A stretch of DNA of 61,091 nt from Stramenopiles sp. TOSAG23-3 (Eukaryota): the NCBI GenBank assembly GCA_900128585.1, contig LT642155.1, positions 1 to 61,091 on the forward strand. The letters are read 5' to 3'. The notes under the pieces were generated by a model. The model saw nothing but the letters and a program-made list of their open reading frames with translations. It searched no databases and was not told the origin of the DNA. A program made the position numbers and the translations under genes. Positions 5,044 to 43,568 of the stretch are shown here, one piece after another (position 1 is the stretch's first letter; the number at the start of each line of letters is the position of its first letter).

Positions 5044-5193
5044 TTAAAAACAAAAAATTTGCTGTAATTTAAGTAATGAGAAAAGATAAGTTCGCAGTAC
5101 ATGAAGGAATGTAAACAATGTCTAAATCTAGAGTTCAGCTCGCAGTACATTAATTTTAATTACTTAAATAACAGCCAATTTTCTTGTTTTTAA
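5044..5193. mobile_element. ~150-bp MITE-like element with ~32-bp imperfect terminal inverted repeats
   Basis: 5046-5077 AAAAACAAAAAATTTGCTGTAATTTAAGTAAT matches the reverse complement of 5159-5191 (AAAAACAAGAAAATTGGCTGTTATTTAAGTAAT) with 1 gap and 2 mismatches. TTAA overlaps both ends. The body recurs inverted at ~15077-15192. Confidence 0.65.
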
Positions 5194-35762: not shown

Positions 35763-35828
35763 AAAACAAGAAAATTGGCTGTTATTTAAGTAATAATTAA
35801 ATTTAGCTTCCTCATACCCTAATCCTAA
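35763..35828 (-). repeat. Copy of the dispersed element with a telomere-like CCCTAATCCTAA extension
   Basis: AAAACAAGAAAATTGGCTGTTATTTAAGTAATAATTAAATTTAGCTTCCTCATACCCTAATCCTAA, near-identical to 41117-41179. Confidence 0.85.
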
Positions 35829-35896: not shown

Positions 35897-38800
35897 TTAT
35901 GACAGCAAAGGTGAAGGGTTCTTCTGTATTGCTGCTAAGATCGTCTCGACGAGATTGATTTGCGTGAAAACGTTCACGTTGGCATCGATTGCCTGTCTCC
36001 TCAAACGCTGGGAGAACTGCCCTTGCTCCGTTTCCATGCTGCCAACAGAAGACAAGGATGAAAATTCCAGCAGCAGTTCCACTCGCTTCAGCGACAGGTC
36101 TTCGATCGAGCAGGAGCGCTTGACTTCGTAGCCCATCTGCTCCATTCTTAACGCAAGGTTTTGGGTGCGGGCGTCGCCAGAAAATTCCTTCGCGTGCAGG
36201 CAGACAGCCGTCGCCCCGGACTGTCCGTGAGGTGCCGGAAAGTTGCGCCCTGCGCTGTTTATGGCACAAAGAAGTGCCTTGTAAACATCCTTGTGAAAAC
36301 AGGCTACTTCACCCGTGGCTTTCATAGTCACACCCAGCAAAATGTCCGCCCCGGGCAAGCGGTCGAAGGAGAACACTGGAGTTTTTACGCCGTAAACCTT
36401 TTCCGACGCCCCCGCCCTAGTGTCCAACGCCATGGCAGGGTCGTACCCCATAATTGAAACAGTGGCGACTCTAGCAAAGTCAACGCCACTGGCACGGGAT
36501 ACAAATGGCATGCTTCTGCTTGCTCGTAAATTTGTCTCAATTACTTTCAGCTCGTTGGTTTCTCGAGTGTAAATTATTTGCAAATTGAACGGGCCAGATA
36601 TCTGCAGCCTCCGGCCTATCTTACCGGCAATCACTTTGCACGCGTCGATCGTGCGCTTCGGGAGAGAATGCGGGGGGTGGATCATTGTGGCATCACCAGA
36701 GTGAACACCGGCTGCCTCGATGTGTTCCGACACAGCGAACGCCACCAATTTCCCATCTCGGCACACCGCATCGATGTCTATCTCCTCTCCATTCTCTTCG
36801 TACTTTGACAACACGACTGGGTAGTCCGGGCTCACCCGAGTGGCTTCCTGCACGTACGTGTCCAGGGCAGCACGGTCCCTGACAACTTTCATTGCAGCCC
36901 CTGCAAGGACAAATGAGGGCCGGACCAGTACCGGGAAATGTTTGGAGGCAAAAGCTGCGAGCTCTGAAAATTTTGCAGAGCTTGTCCACAGGGCTTGGTG
37001 GACGCCAATGTCGTCCAACATCTGCGAGTGCATGTGTCTGTCTTCCGCCATGCGAATGTTGGACGGCGAGGTCCCAAGAATGTTCACCTTTGACTTGGGC
37101 TCTCGTTCCAAGCTTGGAACCAAATTCTGCGCCGTTTGCCCACCCATGCTAACGATGACGTTTGGGGTTCCTTCTGCATCCAAGATATCAAGGACCCGTT
37201 CGACCGAAATTTCTTCAAAGTACAGCGCATCCACTTCGTCATAATCCGTGGAGACTGTTTCGGGGTTGTGGTTCAACACCACCGTCCTTCGCCCCGGCTG
37301 CACGCTTTTGATCGTCCGGCTGCACGAAACGACAGAGTGGTCGAATTCAACGCTGCTGCCAATCCGGTACACCCCGCTACCAATGATCAAGATGGGCGCC
37401 AGCGGGGAGTCCCTGTTCAACGGTGAGTAGTCCGATTCTGCGCTCCCTGAGGCTCCGTACGTCATGTAAAAGTACGCGGACGCCGCGGGAAACTCTCCCG
37501 CGGTAGTGTCGATTTGTTTAATTATCGGTGTAATGCCCATTCGCACGCGAGCGTTCCTTACCTCTGGCTCCATGGCCACGGCAGCGCCGGCACCAAAAAT
37601 GTTTCGTGAGATTTGTAAGTCTGAATAACCAAACATTTTTGCCTCTCGCATCAGCCTGGTTGGAACGTCTTGGAGGCTATGAAACACTTTCAACCGAAGG
37701 GACACTTGAAAGCAGTCGTAGAGCTGCCCCAGAAACCAGTAGCCCACCCCCGACGCATCGGCGACTTCTTTCGCCGTCCACCCTTCTTCAAATGCGGCGG
37801 CAATTTGAAACGGTCGCTTCGGGCTTGGGGTTGCCAACAATTCTTTCAAGTTTCTGCCCGGTGACTGGCACTGCTGAGTCTCGTTAAGACCGCTGTCGCA
37901 CGACTGCCCGGGACGCCCCCCCCCGAAGCCCTGTACGTGTTCCCCTGCCCCTACCATGCGCAAAGCTTTTTGAAAGGCTTCTGGAAAGGTCCGACCAATC
38001 CCCATAACTTCCCCTATCGACTTCATCCCTGTGTTCAGTGTTGTGTCCAAATCCCCGTCGAACATTTGAAAATCCCAGTGAGGAATTTTTACCACAACGT
38101 AGTCTAACGCTGGTTCCATCAGTGCCGGGGAAGTTTTAGTCATCAGGTTATTGATCTCCGCCAACGATTTTCCCGCCGCCAGCTGGGCTGCGACGTGGGC
38201 GATGGGATACCCCGTGGCTTTCGACGCTAGCGCACTCGATCGAGAGAGCCTTGGATTTACTTCAACGACAACGTACTCAAACTCGTTTGGGTTCACGGCG
38301 TACTGGACGTTGCATTCGCCCACTATTCCCAACCGGTTTGCTATTGCGATGGACGCTTCTCGCAGTGTTTGGTACTCGAAATCGCTCAACGTTTGGCTGG
38401 GGGCGACTACAATGCTCTCTCCCGTGTGCACGCCTAACGGGTCAAAGTTTTCCATGTTGCAGATGGTGAAGCAGTTTCCGTACCGATCCCGCATGACTTC
38501 GTACTCGACTTCTTTCCAGCCTTTCAGGCTCTTGTCTATAATCATCTGTGCCGGCTTGCCGCCAGGGTCTCGACGGGCCATCGCTTTGGACACCAAATTG
38601 CCCAGTTCCTCTTCATTCTTCGCAAACCCACTCCCGTAACCGCCGAGAGCAAACGCTCGGCGCAATAGCACCGGGTAGCCTATGCTTCTCTTTGCTGCGC
38701 TGAGAATTTCTTCCTTTGTCGAGGCGGTTATGCTCGGTGCTATGGGCTGGCGGATGGAGAGCAGCATGCCCCGAAACTTTTCGCGGTCTTCCGTCAAAAG

Positions 38801-40510
38801 TATCCCTTCCGTTGCCGTTCCCATAATCTTCACGTTGAAATCTCGCAAAAAACCTTTCCACTCCAACTCCAGTCCCAGGTTGAGCGCGGTCTGTCCGCCG
38901 AATGACAGCAAGAGGCCATCTATTGGTGGATCGATCGTAGAATTGAAGATACGCACGACGCTGGCAACGCTTAGTGGGGCGAACACTGTATCGTCCGCCG
39001 TGCCTACTATGGTCTGAACGGAAGCAACATTCGGGTTCAGCAAAACAGTCTTGATGCCCAGCGCCTTCAACGCTTTCAGTGCCTGGGCCCCACTGTAATC
39101 AAACTCCCCTGCTTGCCCAATTTGAAGCCCCCCGCTGCCAAGTACAAGCACCCTCTTGAATTTGCACTCTTCCGTTGAACGAGCGCCCCTTCTTAAATGT
39201 TCGTCGCCGGGGGGCCAGCTGGCATTGACACGGCCGGAGGCGGCATACTCTTTAACAGAATTGAAAAACGCCTTGAAAATTCCGACCTCTTTCGGTCCAC
39301 CGCCGCCTTCGGGGTGCCACTGGGAGCTCATGATGGGCCTTGACCTGTGGTATATTCCAGCGCTTGTGTTGTCGTTAAGGTTCGTGTACAAAGGAGCCCA
39401 ATCGCGTAAAAAATCGAACGTGGTAAAAAACCCGTGGTTCTGGGAAGAAATAAAGCCCAGTTTGGTGTCTTTGGAAAAAACCACGGGGTGGTTGTGCCCG
39501 CGGTGACCAAATTTTAACTTGGAGGACCCGCCCCCGGCCGCCAAGGAAATCAATTGGTGCCCAAGGCATATCCCAAGGATTGGCAAAAATTCTGACAACG
39601 TGCTGGGACCGGAAAAAAGCTTTTGCAACTGTGCAATAGCAAACCTCTGGTTTTTGGGATCTCCGGGGCCATTGGAAAGCAGTAGCCCGTGAAACGGTTT
39701 CTTCTTCATTTCTGCTTCTAACTCTGTGGTCGATCCTGGTGAAATGGAAATCTCAATCTGGGAGTTGTTCGATAAATCTAGCAGTTTTGATACAATGCCG
39801 TGCTTTAGCCCGAAATCGAGAACGAGGATACGAATGCACCCTCCAGGCAAGCCCTCGCAGTTTCCGCACGACCATTGCGCTGGTCCGTACTGTTTTGGCT
39901 GCTGGTTCCAATGTACTTTTTGCTTAACCGCGGCGGGCGACGTTGAAATCGCGCCCACCATGGCCGATTCCTGCTGTCGTATGCGTTTCACCAGCCTCCT
40001 CGTGTCCACTCCATATATCCCTGGAATATTTTCGGAGGCCATCCAATCGGATAAGCTCATGATGCTCTCCCAGTGACTAGTATCACCCGATATGCTCGAG
40101 ACGACGAGCCCTGCCACTTGAATTCGAAAACTCTGGTGGCCATTTTTCGCCGTATGTTTGCAAGCCGTATGCTGTGTGTTTCTGCGTGATAAGGATTTGT
40201 TCGATGGTACCCCGTAGTTGCCAATGAGGGGGTAAGACAACAATAAAATTTGCCCCGCGTACGATGGGTCGGTCATGCTCTCCACGTAGCCCGTCATTGC
40301 TGTGCTAAAAACGATTTCTCCGCCACCAATGTCCTCGTCGGCAAGGGGAAGCCTACCAAACGATTTCCCCGTAATTGTTTCTACCAACGTGGCCGGGTCT
40401 TCTTTTTCGGAATATATGTGGATTTGTACAACGTCCCCATGCGTACCATGGCAGTATACCGCCCTTAGCAGCAAGAAACACGCGAGCAGACAGCACACTG
40501 ACTTGGCCAT
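35897..40510 (-). CDS. Glutamine-dependent carbamoyl-phosphate synthetase, fused small and large subunits, with a hydrophobic N-terminal leader
   Basis: GEIVFSTAMTGY.ESMTDPSY, LSNGPGDP, GICLGHQ (catalytic Cys), SQNHGF, QWHPE and GQAGEFDYSG. Two ATP-grasp halves (EVNPRLSRSS; ETNLRASRS). No DHOase or ATCase domains. Confidence 0.95.
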   Translation of the reverse strand: MAKSVCCLLACFLLLRAVYCHGTHGDVVQIHIYSEKEDPATLVETITGKSFGRLPLADEDIGGGEIVFSTAMTGYVESMTDPSYAGQILLLSYPLIGNYGVPSNKSLSRRNTQHTACKHTAKNGHQSFRIQVAGLVVSSISGDTSHWESIMSLSDWMASENIPGIYGVDTRRLVKRIRQQESAMVGAISTSPAAVKQKVHWNQQPKQYGPAQWSCGNCEGLPGGCIRILVLDFGLKHGIVSKLLDLSNNSQIEISISPGSTTELEAEMKKKPFHGLLLSNGPGDPKNQRFAIAQLQKLFSGPSTLSEFLPILGICLGHQLISLAAGGGSSKLKFGHRGHNHPVVFSKDTKLGFISSQNHGFFTTFDFLRDWAPLYTNLNDNTSAGIYHRSRPIMSSQWHPEGGGGPKEVGIFKAFFNSVKEYAASGRVNASWPPGDEHLRRGARSTEECKFKRVLVLGSGGLQIGQAGEFDYSGAQALKALKALGIKTVLLNPNVASVQTIVGTADDTVFAPLSVASVVRIFNSTIDPPIDGLLLSFGGQTALNLGLELEWKGFLRDFNVKIMGTATEGILLTEDREKFRGMLLSIRQPIAPSITASTKEEILSAAKRSIGYPVLLRRAFALGGYGSGFAKNEEELGNLVSKAMARRDPGGKPAQMIIDKSLKGWKEVEYEVMRDRYGNCFTICNMENFDPLGVHTGESIVVAPSQTLSDFEYQTLREASIAIANRLGIVGECNVQYAVNPNEFEYVVVEVNPRLSRSSALASKATGYPIAHVAAQLAAGKSLAEINNLMTKTSPALMEPALDYVVVKIPHWDFQMFDGDLDTTLNTGMKSIGEVMGIGRTFPEAFQKALRMVGAGEHVQGFGGGRPGQSCDSGLNETQQCQSPGRNLKELLATPSPKRPFQIAAAFEEGWTAKEVADASGVGYWFLGQLYDCFQVSLRLKVFHSLQDVPTRLMREAKMFGYSDLQISRNIFGAGAAVAMEPEVRNARVRMGITPIIKQIDTTAGEFPAASAYFYMTYGASGSAESDYSPLNRDSPLAPILIIGSGVYRIGSSVEFDHSVVSCSRTIKSVQPGRRTVVLNHNPETVSTDYDEVDALYFEEISVERVLDILDAEGTPNVIVSMGGQTAQNLVPSLEREPKSKVNILGTSPSNIRMAEDRHMHSQMLDDIGVHQALWTSSAKFSELAAFASKHFPVLVRPSFVLAGAAMKVVRDRAALDTYVQEATRVSPDYPVVLSKYEENGEEIDIDAVCRDGKLVAFAVSEHIEAAGVHSGDATMIHPPHSLPKRTIDACKVIAGKIGRRLQISGPFNLQIIYTRETNELKVIETNLRASRSMPFVSRASGVDFARVATVSIMGYDPAMALDTRAGASEKVYGVKTPVFSFDRLPGADILLGVTMKATGEVACFHKDVYKALLCAINSAGRNFPAPHGQSGATAVCLHAKEFSGDARTQNLALRMEQMGYEVKRSCSIEDLSLKRVELLLEFSSLSSVGSMETEQGQFSQRLRRQAIDANVNVFTQINLVETILAAIQKNPSPLLS

Positions 40511-41116: not shown

Positions 41117-41179
41117 AAAACAAGAAAATTGGCTGTTATTTAAGTAATTAAATTTAGCTTCATCATACCCTAATCCTAA
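41117..41179 (-). repeat. Copy of the dispersed element; direct repeat of 35763-35828
   Basis: AAAACAAGAAAATTGGCTGTTATTTAAGTAATTAAATTTAGCTTCATCATACCCTAATCCTAA. Confidence 0.85.
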
Positions 41180-41302: not shown

Positions 41303-41333
41303 AAAAACAAGAAAATTGGCTGTTATTTAAGTA
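41303..41333 (-). repeat. Copy of the dispersed element core
   Basis: AAAAACAAGAAAATTGGCTGTTATTTAAGTA. Confidence 0.85.
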
Positions 41334-41417
41334 TGAATAATTAAAATTATTATTATATGCTGTTATATTTATTTAGAGATGATAAGAGTAATTTACAAAA
41401 ACACCAAATAACTGAGT

Positions 41418-43568
41418 TCAAAGTGCATCTTCTTCAAATCTGTAAAACAGATATTCGTCCCTGAGCGTGTTGTGTTGATCTAGTACATGCTTGAACACGC
41501 CGTCGGACATAATATCGTTTAGTACATCCAACACACCCTGTTTGGATTTGAAAAATTTACTGAATTTTTCTGCAACAAATTTTACTGCCTCGCTCCCGAT
41601 GAAACATCTCCTGTAAGAGAACGTATTGTGATACCGGTCTCTCACCAACCCATTCTTGGGATCAGCTATTGCAACAAGCACGTCCGTTTTTATCACTTTG
41701 TATTTTTCGTCTTCCCTCTCCAGCATTTGGAAAAGCAATTGCATTATCTCTTCACAAGTAATCCGTTCGATTGGACTGCTAGTCCAAGTAGCTTTCAAAA
41801 TCTGTTCAACTCTTGGGTCCATACCGTCTGGAATCTCTGGCCTTCCCCCACGCTGAACAAACTCTATGACCTGGGATGGAAACCGGATGTGTTCATAAGG
41901 TGATCTGCCTGTGTAGATTTCCCAAAGAACGACTCCCAAAGAATAGACGTCCGCCGCTGTCGTTGGTATTGCCCCATCGTTCTCCAAAAGCTCTGGGGCA
42001 GCCCATTGCGCAGTTCCCACGTACGATGTGCTCTGGCGCCCATACTGGTCGTAACTAACCATTCGAGAGGGCGATCCTTGCAACGCCCCGTATTGGGAAG
42101 CATCACGGCTTAAAGACCTTTGCCTGTCTTCGAAAGCCTTTGTCATGCCCATATCTGCTAACTTGACAAAATTTCCTTTCAACAAAAAGTTCAGGCTCTT
42201 CACGTCGCAATGGCAAAGAGGTGGGCTCCGATTGTGCAAATAAAGCAGCGAACGAGTGCATTGGATCGCCCGATCTAGAAAGTTGGACAAGCTAGAAACG
42301 GCCCCCTGCCTTTGCTGGATCTCATCGTACAGGCTCCCATCGCAAAGCTCTAATACCATCCCCAGCGCTGGTGGGGCCACACAAACCCCTCTCAGGCTGA
42401 CAATGTTCGGGTGGGAACCACTGACCATTTCCAATATTTTAGCTTCGCTAAAGAATTCTTTGACCAATTCACGGGTCAGCTCAATGCAGTAGATCAACTT
42501 TACAGCAACAGGCTTAGCATTGTAGGACCCCTTGTAGACTCGTGCCGAGCCACCAACGCCAAGGATTGACATGTCGCGAAGTGATAGATCTCGATAGTCA
42601 ATCAACAAATTCTGTTTCGAATACAAATCGTTTACTTCTTTAATAACGGCGTTGGCGGATTTCGCAGGCCAGGACTGGCCAACCAGAGGTGCCCGAATGT
42701 TTTCCAATTCACCAGCAGACAAGACAGAATTCGGGATTCGGGAAGACCGACCACTTCCAAAACTGCGAATGCTGCTTCTGGGCGTTCGTATCTCGTCTTC
42801 TCCCCGCCAGTAAGCGGAGTCTGTCGTAAACGTTGTGTACAGTACGATTGGTTGAAGCAAAGTAAACAAAACCGTCTCAACTGCAAACTTAAAATTATTT
42901 GTAATGTCACTGTCTACCCTCGCGAGCGTCATGATCGATGCTATAACACCGCACCCCCGGATGACGGTGTAAAACAGACTATACTTGAACGTCGCTGGCC
43001 TTCGAAATATTGGAAACATGCTGTCTGGCAAAAGATACACCGAACCGTAGAAAAACAGCATGATTAAGTTCCATAGCCCACTAATAGCAGCGCTCGCGAG
43101 TGGTAGGTTTAAAATATTTAAGGTAACGCGGCTTCCAAAAATGCAACAAAAGGTAAATAATGAAGACAGGAGCGTCAGGCAAAGTCCTGCTTTGAACGAC
43201 TTCATCCCTATTCCCTGCTTCAATAGCATGATGGCAACGCCATCGATTAAAAAATGCCAGGAAGCCCAAATCAAGGCAATGGATACGATTTCAACTAAGT
43301 CTCCCGTACCGGAGGAGTCCCAGTAATCTAAACATTTGCCAGCAAGATAAAACACAACCAACAGCGCCGCGGTTATAAACGACAAAACAATATTTATCCA
43401 TACAAACAAAATGTACGGAGGAAGCACGGAGCTCTTTTCCATTTGAAAGTATTGTACAGGTAACAAGTGCCCATACTTGTGCCTAGCAAGGATAAATAAA
43501 CTACCAACAAGCTGCAACGAATTCCAAACGAATTGCGACTGAAAACTGAAAATGCAAGTTTGGTTCAT
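41418..43568 (-). CDS. 7TM receptor-like domain + TKL protein kinase + DEP domain (GPCR-TKL type)
   Basis: Seven hydrophobic segments. Kinase motifs GVGGSARV, VAVK, HCDVKSLNFL, DMG and GTAQWAAPE. C-terminal DEP-like RRCFIGSEAV...GVFKHV...YLFYRF. Confidence 0.85.
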   Translation of the reverse strand: MNQTCIFSFQSQFVWNSLQLVGSLFILARHKYGHLLPVQYFQMEKSSVLPPYILFVWINIVLSFITAALLVVFYLAGKCLDYWDSSGTGDLVEIVSIALIWASWHFLIDGVAIMLLKQGIGMKSFKAGLCLTLLSSLFTFCCIFGSRVTLNILNLPLASAAISGLWNLIMLFFYGSVYLLPDSMFPIFRRPATFKYSLFYTVIRGCGVIASIMTLARVDSDITNNFKFAVETVLFTLLQPIVLYTTFTTDSAYWRGEDEIRTPRSSIRSFGSGRSSRIPNSVLSAGELENIRAPLVGQSWPAKSANAVIKEVNDLYSKQNLLIDYRDLSLRDMSILGVGGSARVYKGSYNAKPVAVKLIYCIELTRELVKEFFSEAKILEMVSGSHPNIVSLRGVCVAPPALGMVLELCDGSLYDEIQQRQGAVSSLSNFLDRAIQCTRSLLYLHNRSPPLCHCDVKSLNFLLKGNFVKLADMGMTKAFEDRQRSLSRDASQYGALQGSPSRMVSYDQYGRQSTSYVGTAQWAAPELLENDGAIPTTAADVYSLGVVLWEIYTGRSPYEHIRFPSQVIEFVQRGGRPEIPDGMDPRVEQILKATWTSSPIERITCEEIMQLLFQMLEREDEKYKVIKTDVLVAIADPKNGLVRDRYHNTFSYRRCFIGSEAVKFVAEKFSKFFKSKQGVLDVLNDIMSDGVFKHVLDQHNTLRDEYLFYRFEEDAL

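Follow-up and report, generated by a model that had tools for sequence, protein, structure and literature searches.

Eukaryotic carbamoyl-phosphate synthetases (CPS) are described as cytosolic, mitochondrial or plastidial. Carbamoyl phosphate (CP) is needed together with ATP by the CmcH/NodU O-carbamoyltransferases, which make carbamoyl-AMP from them and transfer its carbamoyl to hydroxyl groups on sugars or other molecules; NodU carbamoylates chito-oligosaccharides, and the bacterial members of the family take their CP from housekeeping CPS. One mitochondrial and one cytosolic CPS is the pattern of diatoms, other stramenopiles and MAST-3 Incisomonas in the consulted sections of PMC7542463 and PMC12614181. 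Here we analysed a 61,091-nucleotide stretch from Stramenopiles sp. TOSAG23-3 (contig LT642155.1 of assembly GCA_900128585.1, positions 1 to 61,091; hereafter the window), which carries on its minus strand, at 35897-40510, the gene for a further fused glutamine amidotransferase and CPS of 1537 aa, named P0001. A hydrophobic leader very probably takes this protein into the lumen of the endoplasmic reticulum (ER) or Golgi. P0291, a CmcH/NodU O-carbamoyltransferase that likewise begins with a predicted signal peptide, is encoded in the same genome, and we consider it somewhat better than an even chance that the lumenal CPS feeds labile CP to P0291, probably for O-carbamoylation of glycans, with a secreted small molecule included as the alternative acceptor.

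Identification of a third CPS and its clade

The P0001 gene is a single-exon, uninterrupted open reading frame with an in-frame TAA three codons 5' of its ATG, and the coordinates, frame and N-terminus given in a preliminary description of this DNA proved exact. The window is one contig (C6004) of a 28.4-Mb assembly of 7088 contigs. The identical protein is present in EukProt, and near-identical full-length copies were found in independent JGI and ENA assemblies, so P0001 is not an assembly artefact. RNA contigs from all four runs examined, out of 22 on record, had a depth of about 2-7 over parts of the coding region at 35917-38730, where DNA contamination is possible; none of the four runs gave a contig over 38812-41000, so the 5' end of the gene was uncovered.

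The genome contains three CPS genes. L008 (L008:1734-6203, 1489 aa) is leaderless and has an MGS domain, and L009 (L009:1022-5623, 1533 aa) has an Arg/Lys-rich presequence and an MGS domain as well. These are the two kinds described for stramenopiles, so the standard CPS jobs are already filled in this genome. P0001 is 43% identical to L008 and to L009, which are 56% identical to each other. It belongs to a clade of seven distinct members (P0001, P0003, P0005, P0160, P0145, P0144 and L020), the full-length ones being 48-56% identical to P0001; its nearest named relative is the EukProt MAST-4 protein P0003, with 53% identity. P0003 is the sole clade member that carries a taxon name, and its closeness suggests that the organism is a stramenopile of MAST type. 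Five clade members formed one long-stemmed branch with 100% local support in a FastTree tree of 55 rows, from which three rows with fused N-termini had been dropped and in which long CAD/URA2 rows had been cut at 1520 aa. Four members did likewise in a second tree (IQ-TREE quick, LG+G4) of 31 of these rows. Both trees were unrooted and were built without bacterial or plastid split-subunit CPS, and in both the clade was a branch of its own, apart from the CPS II and CAD clades. P0144 and L020 were assigned outside the tree, by shared motifs. Grouping of the clade with the organism's own cytosolic CPS II was rejected (p-AU 0.008 under LG+G4, with the caveat of long branches). Thus, the paralogue count and phylogeny proposed earlier as a check gave three CPS, with P0001 in its own clade.

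When the clade alignment was used as a search profile, 8000 scored candidates yielded no additional full-length member, and the bit scores fell from 2392 to 1582. A motif scan of metagenome contigs gave 67 loci, in which L020 was the sole clade member, the rest being ordinary CPS/CarA or chance matches; no carbamoyltransferase was found in these 67 loci. In P0144 (ENA, 621 aa) a signal peptide and glutaminase run straight into the C-terminal end of CPS without both ATP-grasp halves, which may reflect mis-assembly, an error in gene calling or a natural form with glutaminase only.

Predicted signal peptide of P0001

The predicted signal peptide of P0001 covers aa 1-20/22 (40445-40510, minus strand). 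It has Lys3, then an uncharged stretch of 12 residues, and small residues at -3/-1 (V-Y-C|H or C-H-G|T), which is the n/h/c pattern of a cleavable signal peptide. All signal-peptide calls in this work were made by hydrophobicity, charge and the -3/-1 pattern only, and leaders were scored by a measure of our own, the best 10-residue Kyte-Doolittle (KD) mean. The score of P0001 was 3.15, while 327 non-clade CPS/CarA N-termini had a median of 0.9, a 95th percentile of 1.68 and a maximum of 2.51, and only 2 of the 327 reached 2.2 or more. Three other proteins of this genome that look as if they carry signal peptides scored 2.48-2.96, and the genome's own mitochondrial-type CPS, L009, scored 0.52. 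An Arg/Ser-rich amphipathic presequence was not found at the P0001 N-terminus. The preliminary description had called this N-terminus a basic, hydrophobic leader with small residues and not an amphipathic one, which agrees with these values.

Examination of the orthologues for the same leader, also proposed earlier, showed a hydrophobic leader in six of the seven clade members, strong in P0001, P0144, P0145 and P0005 and weaker in P0003 and L020. These leaders are alike in kind and differ in sequence. For L020 the leader was taken to start at the first Met that follows an in-frame stop, and the N-terminus of P0160, the member without a leader, looks mis-called. No KDEL or HDEL was present at the C-termini of the 4 CPS and 7 carbamoyltransferases checked, and no C-terminal membrane anchor was seen in P0001.

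Clade-specific loop, cysteines and allosteric domain

P0001 has six N-glycosylation sequons (N104, N248, N381, N429, N523 and N876). This number is ordinary, because 119 other CPS have a mean of 4.7 (SD 1.9, maximum 10) and the composition of P0001 would lead us to expect 7.6. Its 23 Cys are likewise not enriched (24.8, SD 6.1, in the 119 others). However, judged by the alignments, the position of sequons and Cys, not their number, is beyond chance. In the loop at aa 99-127 (40130-40216, minus strand), which holds sequon N104 and C117, six of the seven clade members have a sequon, vs 14 of 277 non-clade loops, and all seven have a Cys, vs 21 of 277. The position of the sequon shifts between subclades within the loop, which is a low-confidence region in the predicted model. 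A second clade-specific element is the Cys insert at aa 213-226 (39833-39874, minus strand), in which C215, C218 and C225 are candidates for disulfides; C215 is invariant in the six aligned clade members, C218/C225 are present in three of the four full-length members, and a C871/C881 pair is present in only two of these four. The six sequons listed in the preliminary description are thus present, but the bulk counts of sequons and Cys give no support to secretion; only their positions in the clade set P0001 apart.

The C-terminal part (aa 1425-1537; 35900-36238, minus strand) appears in the alignments as a remodelled, shortened allosteric domain derived from MGS, with clade Cys at 1437 and 1467. 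Pfam MGS (PF02142) had no match in any of the four full-length clade members and matched both paralogues. In the clade alignments the effector phosphate-binding loop is replaced by x-C-S, and a loose [AG][TS]xx[TS] motif was present in 201 of 217 non-clade tails vs 1 of 4 clade tails. The divergence of this domain, noted earlier, is shared by the full-length clade members.

Catalytic parts of P0001

The other domains of P0001, all on the minus strand, follow the usual order. The small-chain N-terminal domain lies at aa 46-183 (39962-40375; Pfam PF00988), where the model matches 1cs0_B/5dou. It is followed by the class I glutaminase domain at aa 229-416 (39263-39826; PF00117) with the triad C315-H399-E401, whose columns are identical in eight aligned CPS. 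Pfam and alignments placed the bicarbonate-phosphorylation half at 38156-39163 (pre-ATP-grasp aa 450-570, ATP-grasp aa 575-785, clade insert aa 645-655), PF02787 placed the oligomerisation domain at aa 891-969 (37604-37840), and Pfam, a structure match and alignment placed the carbamate-phosphorylation half at aa 1040-1357 (36440-37393). The small-chain and glutaminase domains, the two ATP-grasp halves and the oligomerisation domain all scored above the curated cut-offs of Pfam and NCBIfam (TIGR01369, 1147.8 vs a cut-off of 1027; TIGR01368, 309 vs 307.35). Human CPS1 (5dou/6uel) was the best solved-structure match with 1029 bits, and a predicted structure of the glutaminase region (pLDDT 85) resembled E. 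coli CarA and human CPS1.

We then compared 22 catalytic positions, numbered after E. coli, which included the Cys-His-Glu triad and the ATP-, Mg- and bicarbonate-binding residues. All 22 were identical in four clade and four canonical CPS, and the intact triad and ATP-grasp halves noted in the preliminary description were therefore confirmed. P0001 passes the sequence tests of the family, and we infer that it is an active glutamine-dependent CPS. Two differences were seen in the first ATP-grasp half: an Arg at aa 618, just after the ATP-binding Arg617, in all four clade members (Ala/Ser in canonical CPS), and a 6-residue insert in the lid of the clade (P0001 aa 645-655). These clade-only features may change nucleotide handling.

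A carbamoyltransferase with a predicted signal-peptide leader

Two CmcH/NodU O-carbamoyltransferase genes are present in the genome, on contigs C6009 and C310. The first encodes P0291 (L013:2680-4839, plus strand), a complete protein of 719 aa that matches PF02543 and PF16861. Its leader has 19 uncharged residues and a KD of 3.21, and the EukProt model starts at the same Met. The leader is followed by a small Cys-paired domain, the Kae1-like domain (PF02543) and the YrdC-like domain (PF16861). The metal ligands H256, H260, D287 and D494 (a site of HxxxH plus two Asp) and the base His132 are in place, and they match the two His and two Asp metal ligands and the catalytic His given for GdmN in the consulted part of PMC9633730. 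P0291 falls in a clade of seven sequences with 99% support, in which six of seven have a leader vs none among 37 remoter homologues, of which most are unnamed. This clade and the CPS clade are equally narrow, and they split in a similar way, 3 + 4 here and 3 + rest in the CPS clade. The extra N-terminal domain has 60-70 residues and a conserved Cys pair. It was single-copy in the genome by a one-protein search and had no Atlas match above 0.78, and its model (pLDDT 67) gave a best structural Z of 6.0 (PFU domains), which does not stand out from background.

The second transferase (C310, L010:405-1817, minus strand) is cut at its 5' end by the contig end. It lies outside the signal-peptide clade and groups loosely with eukaryotic homologues from Anneissia, Chromosphaera and Symbiodinium. 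CmcH/NodU proteins thus occur in eukaryotes beyond the P0291 clade, and P0300, P0303 and P0304 have leader-like N-termini. Directly upstream of P0291, at L013:658-2118 (plus strand), is a gene for a Cys-rich secreted protein that starts with a signal peptide and His; its weak LPMO_10 match (E 0.0095) is below the cut-off.

Other consumers of CP were also sought. The genome contains one ATC/OTC-family gene, which is ATC-like and leaderless. No carbamate kinase was present among the three PF00696 matches in the genome, which by eye we take to be a glutamate 5-kinase/P5CS, an aspartokinase-homoserine dehydrogenase and an isopentenyl-phosphate-kinase-like protein. Glutamine synthetase had no match in this incomplete assembly. 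That the mitochondrial-type CPS is accompanied by a single ATC/OTC-family gene and no glutamine synthetase match probably reflects the incompleteness of the assembly.

A proposed route of lumenal carbamoylation

The placement of P0001 in the ER/Golgi lumen, which the clade-wide kind of leader, the sequon loop and the extra Cys of this third paralogue support, agrees with the earlier proposal of a CPS routed to the endomembrane system. The likely reason for the targeting goes beyond that proposal and is the signal-peptide O-carbamoyltransferase encoded elsewhere in the genome. At 37 °C half of the CP is lost in about 5 min, and it decays to cyanate, according to the section consulted of PMC6022934. 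An enzyme of the lumen that depends on this charged, labile donor would need it imported or made on site, and a CPS with a signal peptide would be the simplest source. If P0001 is lumenal, its coupling to P0291 is likely, and given such coupling a glycan would be a fairly probable acceptor, with a secreted small molecule as the alternative. As a more tentative proposal, to which we give a little less than an even chance, a lineage of abundant heterotrophic stramenopiles of the sea has a two-enzyme module of lumenal CPS and NodU-type transferase that O-carbamoylates secreted or surface glycans with a donor made in the lumen.

By this route P0001 would be imported co-translationally into the ER and its signal cleaved, the loop at aa 99-127 would be N-glycosylated, and disulfides would form in the lumen. 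The lumenal enzyme would make CP from glutamine, bicarbonate and 2 ATP, and its remodelled allosteric domain would free it from the cytosolic and mitochondrial effectors of pyrimidine and urea-cycle control. P0291, perhaps held in the membrane as a type II anchor by its longer leader, would convert CP and ATP to carbamoyl-AMP, from which the carbamoyl would pass to a hydroxyl of the acceptor, most likely a sugar residue on a glycoconjugate that is secreted or at the cell surface.

However, several points weigh against this proposal. The targeting call was made with a hydrophobicity measure only, and by this measure the leaders of P0003 (1.71) and L020 (1.64) are only at about the 95th percentile of ordinary CPS, the strong leader of P0005 begins only at Met33 (KD 1.57 from Met1), and P0160 has none. 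Clade members are related, so the leader and loop counts are not independent events, and the bulk sequon and Cys counts were rejected as secretory evidence. Since no ER-retention motif is present, a cleaved P0001 would be expected to leave the cell and lose access to ATP, and we know of no lumenal glutamine supply. The P0001 and P0291 genes are unlinked (C6004 vs C6009), and their co-occurrence was seen in one genome only, the homologues being unpaired by organism; matching of homologues by an amino-acid proxy of GC gave one suggestive pair (0.79/0.76), which was not used as proof. The C310 transferase could be cytosolic, and another consumer of CP may be missed in the incomplete genome.

Weighing of other explanations

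P0001 may be secretory and still serve another purpose, acting in food vacuoles or extrusomes, delivering CP or cyanate onto prey, or trapping ammonia set free during digestion. The lack of a retention signal on P0001 would suit such uses, as would the breakdown of CP to cyanate and the nearest named relative being from MAST-4, since MASTs are described as phagotrophs in the part consulted of PMC8163842. But each turnover would require 2 ATP in a lytic or extracellular space, the conserved glutaminase triad would be superfluous for ammonia trapping, and P0291 with its signal peptide would be left without a source of CP, so we regard these uses as unlikely. Hydrophobicity alone gives no topology, and the leader could also, like that of cytochrome P450, stay uncleaved and anchor a cytosol-facing CPS to the ER or to some other membrane. 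The enzyme would then have a cytosol rich in ATP, glutamine and bicarbonate at its disposal and would need no retention motif. We consider this arrangement quite unlikely, because the uncharged stretch has just 10-15 residues with a basic residue before it and a small-residue cleavage pattern after it, and because the sequon loop and the extra Cys, in numbers able to pair, fit an oxidising lumen.

It is also conceivable that the leader is no targeting signal at all, owing to a wrong start, an upstream exon or an atypical mitochondrial presequence, and that P0001 is a redundant, fast-evolving CPS paralogue. The uncovered 5' end, a branch-point-like CTAAT and pyrimidine tract just 5' of the ATG, the leaderless P0160 and the long branches all point in this direction. 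Yet no AG lies between the pyrimidine tract and the ATG, splicing to the first downstream AG would keep the hydrophobic core, and the same kind of leader is found in five other divergent genes, in L020 from the first Met after a stop. The true mitochondrial CPS of the genome has a leader KD of just 0.52, and we therefore think it improbable that the leader has no targeting role. The preliminary description had also offered a complex or cryptic plastid as destination. A signal peptide is the first half of bipartite targeting signals, and plants and algae do have a plastid CPS (PMC7542463, in the part consulted). But P0001 has no transit-peptide-like segment and no Phe after the cleavage site, where His/Gly/Thr stand instead; the small-chain fold begins at about aa 38-46, only about 15-25 residues past the predicted cleavage, which leaves no room for a transit peptide, and the stretch between is acidic. 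P0001 also groups with eukaryotic fused CPS and not with cyanobacterial-type split subunits, plastid CPS being outside the trees, and IspG, the sole plastid marker tried, was not found in this one incomplete genome (0/1) vs found in 9 of 14 controls. A plastid destination is thus most improbable, and lumenal CPS coupled to P0291 is the explanation that we carry forward.

Other features of the window and of the metagenome loci

The gene neighbours of P0001 in the window gave no pathway clue. The neighbour at 41418-43568 (minus strand) has a receptor-like architecture, in which a multi-pass membrane region at the N-terminus is fused to a protein kinase of TKL type, with a DEP domain at the C-terminus. 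An AT-rich intergenic element of 28-35 nt occurs at 35763-35797, 41117-41151 and 41304-41338, with weaker copies at 5046 and 15078. Exact 28-nt copies of it number 479 genome-wide, 271 in forward and 208 in reverse orientation, vs none for the reversed control, and contigs of all four RNA runs pile up on it to a depth of up to 827 with unrelated flanks. A 3'-end or regulatory element would be one reading, a tiny mobile repeat another. Among the metagenome loci, L023, L025, L028, L033, L035, L038, L056, L059, L067, L074 and L075 are contigs with a GC of 0.24-0.27 and fused CPS genes of 1430-1450 aa, possibly giant-virus or reduced-genome sequences.

Comparison with known systems

No paper linking CPS with the ER lumen and the secretory pathway was found in a literature search that left most subscription journals outside, and the word "carbamoyl" is absent from the main text, as far as consulted, of PMC8163842 and of the MAST-4 genomics paper PMC8237690. 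Neither the secretory CPS clade nor its combination with a secretory carbamoyltransferase appears to have been described, but a clade member might sit unremarked in the tree of PMC7542463, a study with a list of 171 taxa. If the proposal is true, a core metabolic enzyme has a new compartment, which implies a lumenal supply of glutamine and ATP. It would also mean an undescribed O-carbamoyl modification on the exports of widespread ocean bacterivores, with a bearing on surface coat, prey capture or virus defence, and a eukaryotic glycan modification whose activated donor arises in the lumen and is not imported.

From its sequence, P0001 fails the tests of cytosolic CPS II/CAD, of mitochondrial CPS I/III and of plastid-targeted proteins. 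It is like the stramenopile cytosolic CPS II (L008) in being a stand-alone fused glutaminase and synthetase with the Cys-His-Glu triad and the checked synthetase residues, but it is only 43% identical to it and differs in its leader, in having no MGS match, and in the extra Cys and the sequon loop. With the mitochondrial urea-cycle CPS I/III (human CPS1, L009) it shares the domain order and an organelle-type N-terminal leader; however, the leader of P0001 is hydrophobic whereas that of L009 is Arg/Lys-rich (3.15 vs 0.52), and P0001 has the glutaminase Cys, which is missing from human CPS1. The dinoflagellate saxitoxin pathway resembles the proposed module in its O-carbamoyltransferase candidate SxtI and in SxtA, which has a predicted signal peptide without a transit peptide (PMC3097229, in the part consulted). 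It belongs to a different lineage, that part of PMC3097229 reports no dedicated CPS, and sxt genes were not sought here. P0291 shares with the CmcH/NodU enzymes TobZ (3ven), NovN (9s2t) and GdmN (7vyj) the Kae1-like and YrdC-like domains, the metal ligands and the catalytic His, and it differs from the bacterial members in being eukaryotic and in having a signal peptide and an extra N-terminal domain with a Cys pair.

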